DNA of 63,935 nt, the filler included, from Globobulimina sp. (Eukaryota): the NCBI GenBank assembly GCA_003354225.1. It is 55 parts of 55 records of this genome, joined end to end, with 100 filler letters (N's around TTAATTAATTAA, not from the genome) between each part and the next. Parts side by side here need not be neighbours in the genome. Positions count along the whole stretch, not along the records: positions 18,644 to 19,708 come from PIVH01024450.1; 54 more parts are not named here. The stretch is one strand, 5' to 3'. Below, in pieces: positions 17,479-62,102 of the stretch (its first letter is position 1; each line of letters starts with the position of its first letter). A program made the translations under genes and the position numbers. Below the pieces are notes generated by a model. The model searched no databases. It was not told where the DNA came from and saw only the letters and a program-made list of their open reading frames with translations.

Positions 17479-18150
<672 letters not shown>

Positions 18151-18163
18151 CCAACGCGGGTAT

Positions 18164-18210
18164 TACGCCATATGGCACCGCATAAAATACGCCATATGGC
18201 ACCGAATATA
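18164..18210. repeat. ~24-bp direct repeat TACGCCATATGGCACCG(C/A)ATA
   Basis: Two tandem copies, each with the palindrome GCCATATGGC, at the upstream edge of the PI3K remnant. Confidence 0.8.
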
Positions 18211-18427
18211 AGCGGTCGTACGGAGTCAATGGCGCATTATAATGTTTGGTCATTCCTATTGCTAATTAGTGCAACGCCTCGGCCGTATAATCTGGGCCAC
18301 TCTCACTGCCATCCCCCTAAAAGGAACAATGCCATCAAACCGTGTAAATGGAATACTTCCTCGCCGTGATTGATACTCTTCGCCGATATCACACAATGAC
18401 GGCACCTCATAATGCGTCACTTTCATG

Positions 18428-18509
18428 TCATCGCCGTAGGATTTGAACCTACATCCATTTGGTTTGCAATCCATTTAAACCAATGCTCTGCCAATTGAGC
18501 TAGGCGACC
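18428..18509 (-). tRNA. tRNA-like element (Ala-type UGC anticodon if an 8-nt loop insertion is removed); probably a pseudo-tRNA or SINE head
   Basis: GGTCGCC-TA-GCTC AATTGGCA GAGC-A-TTGGT[15-nt loop]ACCAA-ATGGAT-GTAGG TTCAAAT CCTAC-GGCGATG; D and T arms intact, 1:72 mismatch. Confidence 0.6.
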
Positions 18510-18643
18510 TTCCATATGACTTCCGAATGCTTTTTACTTGATTNNNNNNNNNNNNNNNNNNNNNNNNNNNNNNNNNNNNNNNNNNNNTTAATTAATTAAN
18601 NNNNNNNNNNNNNNNNNNNNNNNNNNNNNNNNNNNNNNNNNNN

Positions 18644-18913
18644 ATCTCTGCTCCATTGGACCGTTGTTCCGTTGCAGTAAATAACGAGTTTTTCGTTTTC
18701 GTACCGATCGTAGCAGAAATTTAGCACAGCACCATCGGTTCTTTTCATAAATGAAAACAAGCACTGGCTCGGCACCGAACTTGTCGTGCCAGTGGTGGTG
18801 GTGGTAACAACTCGTTCTGGACTGTCCTTCGTTGTGATCAACATAAAAATTGATATGAAAATTAAAACGGCTCCGGCCGTGCCGACCAATGCGATATTTT
18901 TGCGAGTATCCAT
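18644..18913 (-). CDS. Small N-anchored membrane protein with Thr-rich stalk, partial
   Basis: MDTRKN + TM IALVGTAGAVLIFISIFMLI + TTTTTGTT + Cys-containing ectodomain. Confidence 0.65.
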
Positions 18914-18946
18914 AGTCGTTGAATTAATGAGACTATATCCGCGTTC

Positions 18947-18954
18947 TTTTTATA
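18947..18954 (-). promoter_or_regulatory. TATA box (TATAAAAA) ~34 nt upstream of the ATG at 18913
   Basis: Canonical TATA sequence at a compact promoter-like spacing. Confidence 0.5.
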
Positions 18955-18960
18955 CCTATA

Positions 18961-19095
18961 CGAGGATGAGAACCTCATCCCCCCCCTCGTGCGCCGCCTT
19001 AGAGGCGGCGCACCCAAACCCAGGGAAGGGCTGGGCGGAGCTCCGCCCAGGGGGGTTGGCCAGGCTGCCTAAGAGGCAGCCTGGTGGGGGCTCGC
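18961..19095. repeat. GC-rich cluster of four perfect hairpins/palindromes between divergent ORFs
   Basis: GGATGAG-AAC-CTCATCC (18964-80); GTGCGCCGCCT-TAG-AGGCGGCGCAC (18989-19013); CTGGGCGGAGCTCCGCCCAG (19031-50); CCAGGCTGCCT-AAG-AGGCAGCCTGG (19060-84). Confidence 0.95.
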
Positions 19096-19230
19096 AAAAA
19101 AAACTGGTTGAGGTGTCGGGCTCAGGCTTAGGATTCGGCCGACTCATGCTTCGCATTCGTCATATCGCTGCGCGTGGCCTCACCTCAAGCCTTGCGAGAA
19201 GCCCGAAACCTAAACCTTTTTTTTCAGAAT

Positions 19231-19683
19231 ATGACCGAACGTCAGCTCAGAATTGTTGTGCGTCAAACCATTATGTGGGCCACAGGGAAACCGATACGCG
19301 AACGACATTTCATTTTACCTACATTGATAGAAGCCATGACAGAAATAAAAGATCCGATATTACAACGATATGCTAATTTTTTGCCTGTAGAAAAAGTTAT
19401 TCAAGCTGTATTCAAGGATAATATTATAAATTGGGGCCGAATAGTGTCGATTTTCGCATTTTGTGGCATGATGGCTAATCTGAATAAAAACAGACCTAAT
19501 TATTTATTAAAATTGGAGTACGATTTTGCAAGAGCCCTGTTTGTGCACGTGGGAGCCTGGTTCCACAACCATAATGGCTGGTACGGTTTTGAACGATTTA
19601 TGGACAAAAAGACAGATATTGGATTATTGATAATGGCTGTTTCTATAATTTTGTTTTATTATTCGATAAAATACTTCGTATAA
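19231..19683 (+). CDS. Bcl-2 family apoptosis regulator, compact intronless 150 aa (virus-like)
   Basis: BH1 VFKDNIINWGRIVSIFAFCG; BH2 WFHNHNGWYGFERF; C-terminal TM IGLLIMAVSIILFYY; first ATG at 19231. Confidence 0.9.
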   Translation: MTERQLRIVVRQTIMWATGKPIRERHFILPTLIEAMTEIKDPILQRYANFLPVEKVIQAVFKDNIINWGRIVSIFAFCGMMANLNKNRPNYLLKLEYDFARALFVHVGAWFHNHNGWYGFERFMDKKTDIGLLIMAVSIILFYYSIKYFV

Positions 19684-19808
19684 ACACTTTTCACCAAAAA
19701 ATGCTTAANNNNNNNNNNNNNNNNNNNNNNNNNNNNNNNNNNNNNNNNNNNNTTAATTAATTAANNNNNNNNNNNNNNNNNNNNNNNNNNNNNNNNNNNN
19801 NNNNNNNN

Positions 19809-27540: not shown

Positions 27541-28142
27541 GATAGGCAATATTATGGTTAATGTTATCATCGATTGGGGCATATATGAGTGTGGTATTTG
27601 TGTTGTTGTTAATTAAGGTCTATTCAACAACGTATGCTGAATGTGTCAAAGGAGTAAGAAAAGTATGCTCAATCAGTGCAAGTTATTTATTTTTAGGAAA
27701 GAATAAGAAATTCGGATTTTTGCATTTATGCGGTGTTGCATGTTTTATTGCATCATCAATAACTACGGTTTATACCAAATCCATCAAAACAAAGAAGAAA
27801 ACCAAATAATGACTAATGACTGTGACTAAATTCTGCTCTCCATTTGATTCGGGCGTGTTAAAANNNNNNNNNNNNNNNNNNNNNNNNNNNNNNNNNNNNN
27901 NNNNNNNTTAATTAATTAANNNNNNNNNNNNNNNNNNNNNNNNNNNNNNNNNNNNNNNNNNNNTTAATTAATTGATGGCATGTTAAGCTGAGCCCCTCTC
28001 GAAGCAAGGGCACTTTCTGCGCCAAGGCTAATATGACATCCTCAATCCCTGGTTTGTAGGCTATCCGCAAATCAAACATCCTCGTTTGGAAAAGGAAATA
28101 TAGTTTAATATGCTGGTGTCAGGGGGCAAGTATTGAAACTGG

Positions 28143-28655
28143 ATGAGGATAAATGGAACTAACACGAAAAAAATACGAGAAAAGCTTGAGGGGAAAGTGG
28201 ATTTAATTGCAGATTCTTCATTGACCGTTACGGACAAGAATGATCAAACAAAACTGTACAGCTTAAAATATAGTGTACATGTAAATATAGAACTTATTAA
28301 TGATAAAATATACTTATCCCCTTTTTTGAATGAACCTATTGATGAAAATCCACTAAAACAAAAAACACGAAATTATCCGGTTGATATTGTTTATCCCGAA
28401 AAAAGGATTTATAATTCAATAATTAAGATTCCGCAAGGATATAAGGTGGATTATACCGGAGAAAACTACGATATAAATAATAAATTATTTGCATTAGATT
28501 ATAAAACAAATGTAATTGGTGAATACTTGCAAGTATCGTTTGTTTATTATTTCAAAAAGTCAGTTTATTCTGCTGAAAATTACATGAAAATTAAATTGTA
28601 TTTTAGAGAAATTATAAAAAGGGCGAACGAAAAAGTCGTATTTATTAAAAAATAA
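28143..28655 (+). CDS. Bacterial DUF3857/DUF3858 transglutaminase-associated protein C-terminus (Bacteroidota-like)
   Basis: ENPLKQKTRNYPVDIVYP..IKIPQGYKVD..YSAENYMKIKLYFREII..EKVVFIKK. Confidence 0.8.
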   Translation: MRINGTNTKKIREKLEGKVDLIADSSLTVTDKNDQTKLYSLKYSVHVNIELINDKIYLSPFLNEPIDENPLKQKTRNYPVDIVYPEKRIYNSIIKIPQGYKVDYTGENYDINNKLFALDYKTNVIGEYLQVSFVYYFKKSVYSAENYMKIKLYFREIIKRANEKVVFIKK

Positions 28656-28676
28656 TTCGAATTATCTCAAATTTAT

Positions 28677-29028
28677 ATGAAGTACAAAGAAATAGAATCC
28701 TTAAATCAATTTGAAGACATATATTTAAACAACAAACAATTTGTTTTATTCGCTTTTCAAAATATTGATTTTAATTTAATTAAGGATGAATTTCAAAACT
28801 CATCATTTACGGAATGTTTATTTCTTGGTTGTAAACTTCCACAAAACACACTGGAGAGATTATATTCAAATAATTACATCTTTCCTCAGCTAAATGTGCC
28901 TTACAACTGTTATTCTGCGAGCCTTTATTCATCCAAAAGTCTTTATGCAAATTACCAGCTTGGAAAGGTTGAAAGCTATAAACAAACCCTGGATTATCAA
29001 ATTTATAAACATTATCTGGGTACTGGAA
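28677..29028 (+). CDS. Bacterial LOG-family/Rossmann-fold nucleotide-binding protein N-terminus
   Basis: CLFLGC..IFPQLNVPYNCYSASLYS..LY..YKQTLDYQIY; starts 21 nt after the upstream stop, operon-like. Confidence 0.6.
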
Positions 29029-37276: not shown

Positions 37277-38340
37277 ACTATAGCAGAACCATTGAATGCA
37301 TTGAATCGTGGTAAAGATGGACCAGATATTTCCAAGAAGTGGGGACCAGAACAGGAAGAAGCATTCAATGTTTTGCGAGGATTATTGACATTGAAACCAA
37401 TCATGTGTTTTCCAGACCATAACAAACCATTCTACTTGTTTACAGATGCATCGGCATATGGTATTTCTCGAGTATTGTGTCAGTACGATGAAGACGGACT
37501 ATTACATCCAGTTGGATTTGCATCAAGAACATTGTCAAAAGCGGAGAGAGCTTATTCAACCACAGACAGAGAATGTTTAGCTATTGTTTGGAGTTGTGAT
37601 TTCTTTCGTCCCATTATTTTAGGTCGTGAACTTCATGTGTACACTGATCATAAACCATTGGAATCGGCATGGGGATCCAAGTCGGCCAAAGTTCATGAAC
37701 GTCTGACCAGATGGGCATTGAAAATGGCTCATTATCAGCCATTCACAATTTCACATTTGCCTGGAGAAGAAAATGTAGTTGCTGATTACTTGAGTAGAAG
37801 TCCAGTTGCTTGGTGTTTGGAGAAGGAACGTAGTGCTTATTTCGACAATATGACTCATAAACATGGAGATGATGAGGACAAGTTCAAGACTTATTATGAC
37901 AGTTATGAGAACTACTTGGATACCATAATGACATTAGAGAAGCCAAAGAAAGCACAAGTTTGTTTGCAACAGAATCGTGGCGAGCCGAATGATCAATTCA
38001 TGGAACGAATGTTGTTTGAATCGGTTTCGGGATTATTGGTTATCGACGAGAAATGCCCGGTTTGTGATATTATAAACGGCACTGTGAATGGAAGAGAAAT
38101 TGAAGTGAGAGAACCAACTGATAATGTACCAACAATAGTTTGTGAAACTCGTCTATCGGCAGCTTTCGCAACTAGACCAGCTTTGATTAATAATCCACCT
38201 GTTCAGAAGACAACGACTCGTGGACGGACTCGGAACTCGGTACTTTTGAAGTTGAAGGATAATGATTTGAACGATCCAAAGAGAGGAATGTTTGTTGAAG
38301 CTGAAGCGCAAACGGAAGGTATTTCTATGGCTCAATTTTA
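37277..38340 (+). mobile_element. Ty3/Gypsy LTR retrotransposon pol (RT connection + RNase H)
   Basis: WGPEQEEAF, PFYLFTDASAYG, PVGFASRTLS.AE..YSTTDRECLAIVW, VYTDHKPL, RLTRWAL, NVVADYLSR. Confidence 0.95.
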
Positions 38341-40768: not shown

Positions 40769-41832
40769 AAATGGAATATCCTCCATTCCCTATACGATAG
40801 TAATTGCTCCGACCATATTCCAATCATTTCAGCCTTTGAAGTTTCCCATTCATTTGGATACGAAGAAGATAGAAAAACCTGGAACTTGGCAAGTAAACCA
40901 AAGTGGAGGAAATACACAGAAACGCTTGAGAAAACAATAAAAGATACAACATTTGATAGTGACCCAAATATATACACAGAACAACTGACATATATCATAT
41001 TATATGTATCCGAACAAACAATTGGTTATAAAACCTATTACCGTGGCCATAAACCATGGTGGAACAGGAAAATAAAGAAACTAAAGAAGAAATGCAAAAG
41101 ATTGAGAAGAAGACTCCAAAGAATGAAACGAAATGCGAAGAGATTGAGAGTGGAATTCCATAACTTTCCAAGATATAAACGTGAAAAATCAAAGCTAAAT
41201 AGATTCCAAAAAGCAAAATTTGATCAAATAACCATAGCCAAAACAAAATACTATATTAAAATTAATAAATATATACAAAAATGTAAGGATTATGGACGCA
41301 GATTCTGGCGTACCATATCCAATAATAAATCAAATCAAATAGATACTAATAACATCCCCCATTGAATTATAATAACGAACTAAATATAACCGATCCGAAA
41401 AGACAGGCAAAAGCTTTACACGAAGCTATGATGAGACCGCCAAAGCCTCCATCTAATCCAGAACATGAATCATGGCATAACTATGTAAATAAATACGTCC
41501 CAGAATTCCTAAATAATCATCGAAATTCGCCTAATATAAATAATAATGATATACATAACATAATCGCCGATAAAATTAGACAAAATAAGCTATCACAAAT
41601 AGATCATCCATCCGATATAAATACAAATATATTAATAAACCCCGCCAGTTACCAAACAATAAATGATCCAATTTTAAAATATGAAATAAAAAAAGTAATA
41701 AAATGCCTTGATACCCATAAGGCCTATGGGCCCGACAGAATCCACAACCAAATGTTGAAGAATGGAGGCGATGCCTTACTAAATTGCCTCATCCCATTGT
41801 TTAATAAATGTCTGATAAAGGGAACATTCCCG
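40769..41832 (+). mobile_element. Non-LTR retrotransposon ORF2 (APE endonuclease end to RT start), frameshift at ~41360
   Basis: SDHIPI, KPWWN, FWRTI, YEIKKVIKCL..HKAYGPDRIHNQMLK..LFNKCL..GTFP. Confidence 0.92.
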
Positions 41833-59383: not shown

Positions 59384-60446
59384 GACATTAGATGTCCGGG
59401 GCCCGTCCGACCGCTGTGGGCCTATGATCGAGTTCGGAGAGAAGGATTATGGACAAAACTAAGAGACTATGGATTCCCAGAACAATTGGTAAGGGCAATA
59501 GAAAGTAGCTACCACAATCCTGGAGCAATAATTTCATTTCAAAATCAAAATACCGAAAGACTATCAATGAACGTAGGACTCAGACAAGGATGTACTATGT
59601 CACCCATATTATGGGCATTATTCATAGCAGACCTTGGAAAAGAAATCGAAAAATCAAACTTAGGCATAACAATCGGACCAAATAACGAAAACAAAAATCT
59701 ATCTGGAATTTTCTTCGCCGACGATATGCTATTATTTGCCGCTTCAGAATCCAAAATGGAAAAATTACTAAACATTGTTGGTAATTACGCTCAAAAATGG
59801 AAAATAGAATTTTCGGGCCCTAAAAGTATGGTAATACCACTAAAACGTGATATAGACGAAACCAAAAATTGGAAAATAGGAAAAATGTACATTACCGAAA
59901 ATGAAGAAAAAATCATCAAAATTCACGAACAACGCGAAGCTAAATATCTAGGAATTACCATCAACAAACATAGAGGCAGTATGTTTCAAAAACATAGAAA
60001 CGATCTAAGAATTAGAACCGAACGAGAAACTACAAGATGCTATAGACCAGCAATCGCAACTGCAAGATCAGTACTCTATGGAACAAAAATATGGGAAGTA
60101 TATGTAGTTCCAAAAATCCTACATGGAATAGCTGCAATAACATATTCTACAAATACTTTCTCTGGAATAGAAGTTCAACAACGCGAATTCATCCGATCAA
60201 TATCTAAACTTCCAAGACATACACATAGAGCCGTTATATACGGTGAAACCAAACTACTTCCAATGCAAATGGAAGCCGACAAAAGAACAATGAACTACCA
60301 TCAACATCTAAATAATCTAAACAACAACAATATTGCAAAAATTGTTTTATTAGAACAACGTCAAATATATACACAAGATCCAAATCAAACAACTTGGTTA
60401 AAACATGCCATTAATATCTATAATAAATACAACCTCGATCATAACG
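59384..60446 (+). mobile_element. Non-LTR retrotransposon reverse transcriptase
   Basis: GLRQGCTMSPILWALFI, IFFADDML, KYLGI. Confidence 0.95.
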
Positions 60447-60546: not shown

Positions 60547-60685
<139 letters not shown>

Positions 60686-60705
60686 CTATTGTTAATGATT
60701 TATAA

Positions 60706-61293
60706 TTACTTTTCAGTTGTTTTTTTTTCAACCGAAGCTTTTTTAATTATAACCGGCGAAACCGGTACATCCCTGTATCTACTTTTAACTGTGGTCCGCT
60801 GCCCCTCAATAGATTCCACAACGTTCATTCCTTTTACAACCTTCCCGAAAACGCAATATCCCCAGCCCTTAGGGTTTTTACCTGTGTGATCAAGAAAACG
60901 ATTATCAACTGTGTTGATAAAAAATTGAGATGAAGCAGAATGCGGATTATTTGTTCGGGCCATCGCAATTGTTCCCCGGCGATTTTTTAGTCCGTTGTCA
61001 GCTTCATTCTGTATGGGAGCATCTGTTGATTTATTTTGCATATCTGCTGAAAATCCGCCTCCCTGAACCATAAAACCCTTAATGACACGATGAAAAATCG
61101 TGTTTTCATAAAACCCTTTTTGCACATAGTTTAAAAAGTTTTTAACTGTTTCCGGTGCCGCCTTGGGATCAAGCTCAAGTGTTATAACACCGAGATTTGT
61201 TTCCATAATTACACGGGGGTTATTCGTTTCCGAAAAAACATGTCCGGCTGATAATAATAATAGTAACAAACAAATTACAGTAATTTTTTTCAA
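60706..61293 (-). CDS. ppiA: Bacterial periplasmic cyclophilin-type peptidyl-prolyl isomerase
   Basis: Signal peptide; APETVKNF, FHRVIKGFMVQGGG, GTIAMART, SQFFIN, GYCVFGKV; TTG start with AAGGAGG RBS at 61300-61306. Confidence 0.93.
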   Translation of the reverse strand: MKKITVICLLLLLLSAGHVFSETNNPRVIMETNLGVITLELDPKAAPETVKNFLNYVQKGFYENTIFHRVIKGFMVQGGGFSADMQNKSTDAPIQNEADNGLKNRRGTIAMARTNNPHSASSQFFINTVDNRFLDHTGKNPKGWGYCVFGKVVKGMNVVESIEGQRTTVKSRYRDVPVSPVIIKKASVEKKTTEK

Positions 61294-62102
61294 AACAAAC
61301 CTCCTTAAAGTAAAAAAATGAATCGTTACACAAAATTTGTCAAAATCTTTATTTATGTTTTCAAAACATATTTATCAACCAAATTATTGCACTATCATCA
61401 ATCCGATTTTTCTTGCATTGTTGATAAGGATATACATATAATCAAAACCGAAAACTTTGGGAGACATAACTAATTGCAATTACATCGATATTTGTATCTT
61501 GTGGGCACTTGTTTGCACAATGTGGATTAATGTCCGCCTGTACATGTTTACCCGTGTTTAATACTTCGAAGCCTATGAAAGTCGAAAGAATTAAAGATCC
61601 GCGATTTGTNNNNNNNNNNNNNNNNNNNNNNNNNNNNNNNNNNNNNNNNNNNNTTAATTAATTAANNNNNNNNNNNNNNNNNNNNNNNNNNNNNNNNNNN
61701 NNNNNNNNNACTGTTTGCCAAACAGTATATTTACTGTTTGGCCACTGCTTTTGTATCTAAACACAGTAGAGCTGAGGATTGCTTTTTTGACAGGCAAAAT
61801 TTGGTGTACCCAAAAATGAGTTAACACGACAAACAAACATGTAATCACTGTTTATTCTGATTTTTTCATTGACATAAATCATATTTTGCAATTATGGACT
61901 GAGTAACTTCAAACAAGTCATTTGTGTCACAGCAGTCATCAGTTTGAGGTTTTGAATTTACATTTTTTTTTGATGTTGGTTTCTAGTGCCAATTTGTTTA
62001 TATCCTTGTTTACAATGTTCGCATTTAAATGTAAATAAATACAAGCGAATTTTTATGTTTAGTCTAGTGTAGTCTGTAAAGTTTCTTCAAAACTTTAAGA
62101 AA

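Follow-up and report, generated by a model that had tools for sequence, protein, structure and literature searches.

Bcl-2 family proteins are usually seen as an animal invention that was later borrowed by animal viruses, and to our knowledge they are otherwise confined to these two sources. The animal proteins Mcl-1 and A1/Bfl-1, together with NR13/Bcl2L10, combine the Pfam Bcl-2 domain with a Bcl-2 homology 1 (BH1) motif NWGR, a GW-containing BH2 motif, an eight-helix bundle and a C-terminal anchor. The viral homologues, among them FPV039 of fowlpox virus, the herpesvirus proteins BHRF1, BALF1 and ORF16, A179L of African swine fever virus and the Bcl-2-like proteins of iridoviruses, are small, lack introns and combine an eroded BH3 with a tail anchor. 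All of these traits are shared by the gene that we describe here, at positions 19231-19683 of a DNA window of 63,935 bases (the whole stretch analysed) from the Globobulimina sp. assembly GCA_003354225.1. It is a genuine Bcl-2 family gene, and its protein falls in a hitherto unnamed clade represented solely by short contigs from the environment; the likeliest owner of the gene is a Globobulimina-like benthic foraminifer or a eukaryote that lives with one. One source states that protozoa lack sequences similar to Bcl-2 (PMC4979448). Within the literature on foraminifera and Bcl-2, represented mostly by titles and abstracts, we found no report of a foraminiferal Bcl-2, and peptide strings of the family were absent from the literature searched. 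The closest parallel within Foraminifera is provided by the caspase homologues reported in Reticulomyxa filosa (Klim et al., cited in PMC10565124; also PMC11463336), which are likewise animal-type apoptosis proteins, of a different protein family and reported without any Bcl-2.

The window consists of 55 unrelated contigs of 1063-1066 bp each, joined by N/TTAATTAATTAA/N spacers, and the locus under study is exactly one of them, 18644-19708 (1065 bp). Because the stretch is made of separate contigs joined together, neighbouring contigs are uninformative on linkage. The gene has the following features, of which the motifs, the anchor and the T-run were read from the sequence.

19231-19683, plus strand: Bcl-2 family gene of 150 codons and a stop, an intronless and uninterrupted open reading frame (ORF)
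19429-19446, plus strand: BH1 motif NWGRIV (residues 67-72), including the groove arginine R70
19558-19590, plus strand: BH2 motif WFHNHNGWYGF (residues 110-120), unbroken by an intron
19618-19668, plus strand: C-terminal hydrophobic tail anchor IGLLIMAVSIILFYYSI (residues 130-146)
19217-19227, plus strand: run of eight T followed by CAG, 3 nt 5' of the Bcl-2 ATG

An earlier analysis of this contig, hereafter the original prediction, had described an intronless Bcl-2 homologue of 150 residues with these BH1 and BH2 motifs and anchor, and had called the contig virus-like. Its observations hold in part and its interpretation found partial support; the description of the gene itself was confirmed. 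The Pfam hidden Markov model for Bcl-2 (PF00452) recognises the ORF with 46.5 bits against a curated gathering cut-off of 31.4 (E 5.7e-12), and relatives down to E 1.4e-51 among 1.84 billion representatives place the frame beyond chance. An Atlas search gave the same family assignment for this ORF. In a phmmer search of the PDB with the single protein, Bfl-1/A1 was the best match (E 1.7e-7), and the matches to Bfl-1/A1, Bcl-2, Mcl-1, Bcl2L10 and Bcl-xL, among the 60 listed, ranged from E 1.7e-7 to 3.6e-5. With a profile of the family, Mcl-1 ranked best (1.6e-11), followed by A1 (7.9e-11) and the fowlpox protein FPV039 (4.4e-10).

Structure prediction agrees with a Bcl-2 fold. The AlphaFold2 model, for which 16 family rows served as input, has eight helices with a predicted local distance difference test score (pLDDT) of 83.9 and a predicted template modelling score of 0.81. 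When this model was compared with the PDB by Foldseek, the 43 matches listed were exclusively Bcl-2 family chains (template modelling score, TM, 0.57-0.74), with a probability of 1.00 to BAX, Mcl-1, NRZ, A1 and Bcl-2. The BAX monomer was the top match, a rank that perhaps results from packing of the tail helix on the bundle in the model. This tail was modelled as a helix spanning residues 131-149 with low confidence (pLDDT about 52-53), and an N-terminal helix is predicted at residues 2-17.

Residues N67, W68, G69, R70, I71 and V72 of BH1 and W110, G116, W117, G119 and F120 of BH2 show no variation between the window protein and its two nearest relatives, and W68 is almost invariant over the 16 family rows. 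Several clade members carry BH1 variants (SWSK, NWGT, NWES, TWRR); as some of them lack the G-R of BH1 (SWSK, NWGT, NWES), there may be a functional split within the family. A canonical BH3 of the form LxxxGD is missing from the 150-residue ORF, as originally noted; the alpha2 region reads LIEAMTEI, without G-D. Likewise, BH4 (PF02180) gave no match at E up to 1 in the Pfam scan. The LxxxGD motif is dispensable in pro-survival and viral Bcl-2 members.

Measured against Mcl-1 and A1, the predicted fold is similar (TM 0.6-0.74), with only 17-25% identity in the structural alignments. Unlike these proteins, the window protein has just 150 residues and a shortened alpha3-alpha4 region, it has neither an LxxxGD BH3 nor a Pfam BH4 match, and its gene has no BH2 intron. 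The viral Bcl-2 proteins also have a similar fold (TM 0.6-0.78 in BFVD), with identities of 12-23% among the 15 leading BFVD matches.

An exhaustive HMMER search of the 1.84 billion representatives returned 60 matches at E up to 1e-3. Eight of these lay below 1e-10 (P0001-P0008, 76-157 residues), followed by a gap to 3.6e-8. With cluster members and the results of a profile search added, the clade comprises 19 sequences in 13 clusters at 90% identity. Its members are 29-74% identical to the window protein and keep its length and motifs, and all seven relatives tested passed the PF00452 cut-off, the lowest at 31.8 bits. They derive from ENA, Logan, JGI or NCBI metagenome contigs of 485-4301 bp. 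The collection includes annotated animal proteomes, yet all 19 sequences lack both a name and a UniRef/nr accession. Among its 15 billion sequences the window protein does not itself occur. A scan of JGI metagenomes gave only four loci, all of them distant (27-52% identity within short segments) and none a family member; a protein scan of prokaryote genome contigs gave no family member either.

The phylogenetic position of the clade was examined in a 65-row tree that comprised the window protein, 12 other members of the family, 50 other best matches, the intron-bearing relative P0070 and the viral-contig protein L001. Fragments (P0006, P0009 and P0014) and near-duplicates (P0061-64 and P0071) were left out. 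All 13 family rows formed one clade (Shimodaira-Hasegawa-like approximate likelihood ratio test, SH-aLRT, 99). Its stem measures 1.17 changes per site and its internal branches are deep, and the backbone of the tree is without resolution. The clade lies inside none of the sampled animal or viral groups, and no nesting was found within the metazoan orthologue groups Mcl-1, A1, NR13, Bcl-xL or BAX/BAK/BOK. The few outgroup rows with names are a frog Bcl-2 domain protein, a fish NR13-like protein, a bat A1 and a starfish BAX-like protein. The clade is separated from Mcl-1 and A1 by this long stem, and its owner is probably not an animal.

Further evidence on the owner resides in the DNA upstream of the gene. 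The ATG of the Bcl-2 ORF and that of a small divergent ORF lie 317 bp apart, a spacer that takes up 30% of the contig and has a GC content of 57%. The original prediction had seen very little spacer DNA here, which these figures contradict. The spacer contains two structured elements.

18964-19090, no strand: cluster of four GC-rich palindromes, at 18964-18980, 18989-19013, 19031-19050 and 19060-19084
19098-19224, no strand: imperfect inverted repeat I1 (127 nt), with 25-nt arms that are 84% complementary and A8/T8 boundaries

The four palindromes are perfect, with centres of 0-3 nt, and this cluster comprises the perfect inverted repeats I7, I8 and I12. In the predicted DNA fold a C5/G5 stem encloses the palindrome cluster, and the fold of 18950-19230 is far more stable than expected (z = -8.5; 0 of 200 shuffles as stable). 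Read depth was obtained from X1, the one sequencing run found to contain the contig (0.77 of its words) and perhaps the source sample, by aligning Logan contigs to the contig; runs X2 and X3 gave no cover and no RNA run was listed with the contig. The flanks have a depth of 5.0-6.2 in X1, and the values rise to 378 and 238 in the bins covering 19040-19111, where 19045-19089 is spanned by a 65-nt unitig of depth 270. The palindromes are therefore a high-copy dispersed repeat, about 45-50 times more abundant than the gene and its flanks. Further unitigs, with depths of 4.7 and 8.2, include the first long palindrome before they pass into unlike AT-rich DNA, and because palindrome modules run into unlike DNA at the depth of the gene, the genome that carries the gene holds further copies. 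The second structured element is repeated too, since a 657-nt unitig of depth 23 shares 19109-19154 with six differences.

Short GC-rich palindromic repeats are known as the GC clusters of yeast mitochondria and the repetitive extragenic palindromic (REP) elements of bacteria. The spacer resembles both in its perfect GC-rich palindromes of 20-25 nt, which are high-copy, modular and set in AT-rich DNA; it differs from both in its nuclear-type setting beside protein genes and in the lack of an Rfam match. Indeed, a scan of the contig 18644-19708 found no Rfam family at E up to 1. The palindrome repeat explains the bad assembly of such genomes and provides a marker by which other contigs of this organism can be traced.

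When the third palindrome was used as a pattern, only two matches were obtained among 32.2 million prokaryote-genome contigs, both on small contigs of a single metagenome-assembled genome (MAG; G001, 3.1 Mb) with the contig title 'Gammaproteobacteria bacterium isolate Glo_16 GloG15_CONTIG...'. Searched with the family profile, G001 yielded three contigs, each matching family residues 5-27 only. All three have the same order: the palindrome array, TTT(T)AG AT ATG, the peptide MLL(R/G)T.VHQIVLWATGQTIH(NPH), and then a break into repeat; the 5' fragment is frame-shifted in one of the three copies. The window palindrome cluster is 77% identical over 112 nt to that of G001 contig C409. One module is identical between the two, and another has changes at two stem positions, matched on both arms so that complementarity is preserved. 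Furthermore, the loose ends in X1 have the module order of C409, which implies that the genome in the two data sets is the same or closely related.

The repeat downstream of the G001 fragments occurs at 37 places on 18 small contigs of that MAG. Hence, the small-contig tail of this 'gammaproteobacterial' genome is contaminated with eukaryote-type repeats that have been mis-binned, and their high copy number may have drawn a coverage-based binner to pool them with an abundant bacterium. The repeat itself is complex and satellite-like, with units containing ..GGTTCCGAAATCGAGTATCGATATCGA.. and ..CCGAGTTATGGCTATTTC.. (for example L008 530-882, L009 1099-1237, L010 504-979 and L011-L017). On one G001 contig, a tRNA-Leu(TAA) gene (L009 854-935, plus strand) stands 96 nt 5' of the family fragment. 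Tightly packed beside it, and upstream of the Bcl-2 5' fragment, is a 170-residue ORF without a Pfam family (L009 286-798, minus strand). The upstream read-through of P0062, ..GSNP.., could represent a tRNA T-arm, seen in translation only; a recurring tRNA/Bcl-2 neighbourhood might then tentatively be suggested. A GT..AG intron following the G001 fragments was considered and dropped, as the spliced frame fails to continue the family sequence.

GloG15 is described as an assembly, made with IDBA-UD, of 3,360 pooled individuals picked by hand from the benthic foraminifera Globobulimina turgida and G. auriculata; its draft genome has 34.25% GC and an N50 of 1,797 nt, and about 2.26 million contigs remained unassigned (PMC6783311). 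The GC content of the Bcl-2 ORF (0.36) agrees with the published 34% of the Globobulimina draft genome. At the DNA level, the sole kin found come from this metagenome of hand-picked foraminifera. A large, AT-rich and repeat-rich eukaryotic genome fits the gene better than a virus does: a cellular genome is favoured because the family is diverged and has many members, the contigs are tiny, the palindrome is high-copy, gene fragments lie beside an abundant repeat and the kin come from a foraminifer metagenome. We put the reading that this is a cellular gene of such a eukaryote, probably a foraminifer, at about an even chance. The original prediction had ranked a Bcl-2 outside Metazoa as the less likely outcome; this is the option that gained most, through the kin in the foraminifer metagenome, the owner being deduced rather than seen.

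Run X1 also bears on whether the gene is alive. A 198-nt unitig of depth 3.1 aligns without gaps to 19396-19577 at 85% identity (27 differences). Third codon positions account for 12 of the 18 in-ORF differences listed; 14 codons are changed, eight synonymously and six conservatively, with no stops. X1 thus contains a second diverged copy, which is a paralogue, an allele or the gene of a related strain, and because the 85% match is gapless with differences mostly at third positions, the Bcl-2 frame is under purifying selection. A dead retrocopy or chance frame without function is accordingly very improbable. The G001 copies, which are 5' fragments cut by repeat, one of them frame-shifted, are what such a relic would look like; the window ORF, on the other hand, is of full length with every family motif intact, its differences from the second copy are concentrated at third positions, and relatives at 29-74% identity retain length and motifs.

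The known animal and viral range of the family, together with the statement on protozoa in PMC4979448, would be in line with a gene of a small marine or freshwater animal from a lineage not yet sequenced, for instance a nematode, flatworm or gastrotrich of the meiofauna, present as prey or contaminant and carrying a fast-evolving, intron-less Bcl-2 subfamily. The closest named proteins are indeed animal (the frog, fish, bat and starfish sequences in the tree). The region immediately before the start codon points in the same direction. The T8 run and CAG form a possible 3' splice or trans-splice acceptor, TTT(T)AG stands 2 nt 5' of the ATG in the G001 copies, and the read-through translations of three relatives stop at ..FFYFQ|M, ..TSYQ|M and ..LFK|M, with Q or K directly before M; the start-codon contexts of 35 other ORFs in the window do not share the pattern of a T-run and CAG. 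Nematodes, flatworms and rotifers have trans-splice acceptors of the T-run and AG type, which the T-run and (C/T)AG before the ATG resemble. Spliced-leader trans-splicing has, however, also been described in a rhizarian (PMC6053224). The clade falls in no sampled animal group, and its 19 sequences remain nameless beside annotated animal proteomes. Moreover, a contaminant is an unlikely source of a repeat some 45-fold deep, or of several repeat contigs in hand-picked foraminifera.

The conserved BH2 intron of animal genes is absent as well. P0070 and its 13 cluster members, a Bcl-2 homologue of 174-217 residues on ENA contigs of up to 2.65 Mb, belong to a sequenced eukaryote outside the clade; P0070 stops at ..HHGW and continues with unrelated residues, the signature of this intron. 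The window ORF is continuous through BH2 across the point at which P0070 breaks. Taken together, these observations make an unsampled animal a rather unlikely owner.

The original prediction took the contig for a fragment of an undescribed DNA virus or polinton-like element. 'Virus-like' has turned out to be an interpretation only, with no sequence feature that shows it, and no positive evidence for such a fragment was obtained. In its broadest form, this explanation invokes an agent associated with the protist or with an invertebrate, either a large DNA virus or an integrated element of viral or polinton-like type, that captured an anti-apoptotic gene, with the palindromes as homologous-region-type repeats. 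The intronless gene of 150 codons with its eroded BH3 would suit it, as would the divergent layout of the contig, formed by two further features.

18644-18913, minus strand: divergent ORF of 90 residues, open at the contig end, with one hydrophobic stretch, a Thr run and a Cys-containing tail
18946-18954, minus strand: TATA-like TATAAAAAG, a consensus match only, 33-41 nt 5' of the ATG of the small ORF

The hydrophobic stretch, the Thr run and the TATA-like element of this small membrane ORF had been correctly described, and support for it as a gene was not found: its sole Pfam match is below the cut-off (19.3 against 24.3 bits), there is no usable Atlas match and no kin in IMG/VR, and its GC content at third codon positions (GC3) is 0.51, against 0.37 for the Bcl-2 ORF. 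Large invertebrate DNA viruses have dispersed palindromic repeats, and the depth of the window palindrome, roughly 45-50 times that of the flanks, is in their range. The tRNA gene adjoining a family fragment is also compatible with a virus, and a multicopy integrated element would account for the short contigs.

A search of IMG/VR (2.9 million contigs) with family motifs, P0063 and P0008 found no family member and one distant match, L001 9794-10330 (plus strand), a tail-anchored Bcl-2 of 178 residues that is 30% identical and lies on a 208-kb contig. By eye, an ORF resembling the large subunit of RNA polymerase and an RNase III-like ORF lie near this gene. P0010, a Logan contig sequence (E 2.1e-7) and the best full-length match outside the clade, pairs with L001 in the tree, a link to a viral contig with an RNA-polymerase-like ORF that speaks for a virus; against this, the pair groups with vertebrate-type sequences, away from the clade and not beside it. 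IMG/VR holds no kin of the small ORF or of the neighbour ORF of a related contig, and no match to the third palindrome. No viral hallmark gene is present on the 1065-bp contig, which is too short for decisive exclusion of a virus. Among the fold matches in BFVD are herpes-, pox-, asfar- and iridovirus proteins and an adintovirus Bcl2, the last a poor match (TM 0.40), and they are no closer than the cellular ones. Additionally, none of the 19 family sequences is on a contig longer than 4.3 kb, and gene fragments beside a repeat found at 37 places look eukaryotic. A viral owner therefore seems unlikely to us.

Several observations weigh against a cellular, foraminiferal origin. No contig links the family gene with an unmistakable foraminiferal gene, the owner of the three G001 contigs, which share a bin with a bacterium, follows from the source of the sample only, and a picked foraminifer still holds prey, symbionts and possibly viruses. 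Neither Reticulomyxa nor any other annotated protist protein is among the 60 matches of the exhaustive search or the names read. The palindromes do not occur in the other 54 contigs of the window, and the dinucleotide signature is non-discriminating: the CpG observed/expected ratio of the contig, 1.31 against a median of 0.96, lies within the spread of the others. Compactness, the lack of introns and a degenerate BH3 are also what a virus-captured gene would show, and giant viruses too can have tRNA genes, paralogue families and repeats.

The remainder of the window gives a picture of the library from which the contig came. Most of its contigs are AT-rich (25-41% GC) and carry long standard-code ORFs of eukaryotic type, including a choline-transporter-like protein (Pfam, 129.7 bits), a PTP-like phytase (paladin-type) domain, a GH30 glycosidase and a GMC oxidoreductase. 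The choline-transporter-like ORF had no match at E up to 1e-10 in a search among longer proteins. The Bcl-2 ORF (GC 0.36; GC3 0.37) is in the range of these AT-rich eukaryotic contigs, and a protist-dominated make-up of the library is plausible. The repeat downstream of the G001 fragments was not found in the other contigs of the window. A selenocysteine tRNA gene on an unrelated AT-rich contig (32304-32389, plus strand; Rfam 74 bits, ARAGORN anticodon TCA) implies that at least one organism of the sample uses selenocysteine. Another tRNA gene (18427-18509, minus strand; Rfam 45.6 bits), on the contig 17479-18543 (48.5% GC), received a two-base anticodon call from ARAGORN, possibly with an intron, and adjoins an ORF that by eye is PI3/PI4-kinase-like. 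Retroelement-like ORFs, recognised by eye as reverse transcriptase, RNase H or endonuclease, fill the contigs 37277-38340, 40769-41832 and 59384-60446. Bacterial-looking ORFs, again by eye and including a secreted cyclophilin-type isomerase, are at 60547-61609 (minus strand) and 27964-29028 (plus strand). The assembly is thus a mixture of eukaryote and bacteria.

The window protein is probably of the pro-survival, Mcl-1/A1-like type, a compact tail-anchored protein with several BH motifs. Its C-terminal helix would anchor it in the mitochondrial outer membrane or the endoplasmic reticulum, and the eight-helix bundle would form a groove with R70, the arginine of BH1, and the tryptophan of BH2 in its lining. 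This groove may bind an amphipathic BH3-like helix of a presumed partner and so restrain membrane permeabilisation, as Mcl-1 and A1 do.

It is tempting to speculate that Foraminifera, a group of Rhizaria, possess an expanded family of true Bcl-2 proteins with tail anchors, encoded in their own genomes alongside the caspase homologues of Reticulomyxa, a proposal that we hold tentatively and rate a little short of even. If the owner is instead a protist virus or an unsampled animal, the clade would still be a new deep branch of the Bcl-2 family. If the proposal is true, Bcl-2 control of mitochondrial permeabilisation is not limited to animals and viruses, and the family is either older than Metazoa by far or was gained by a protist through gene transfer and then diversified. 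A foraminiferal family would reopen the timing of mitochondrial apoptosis control and, together with the caspase homologues, would offer a non-animal test system.

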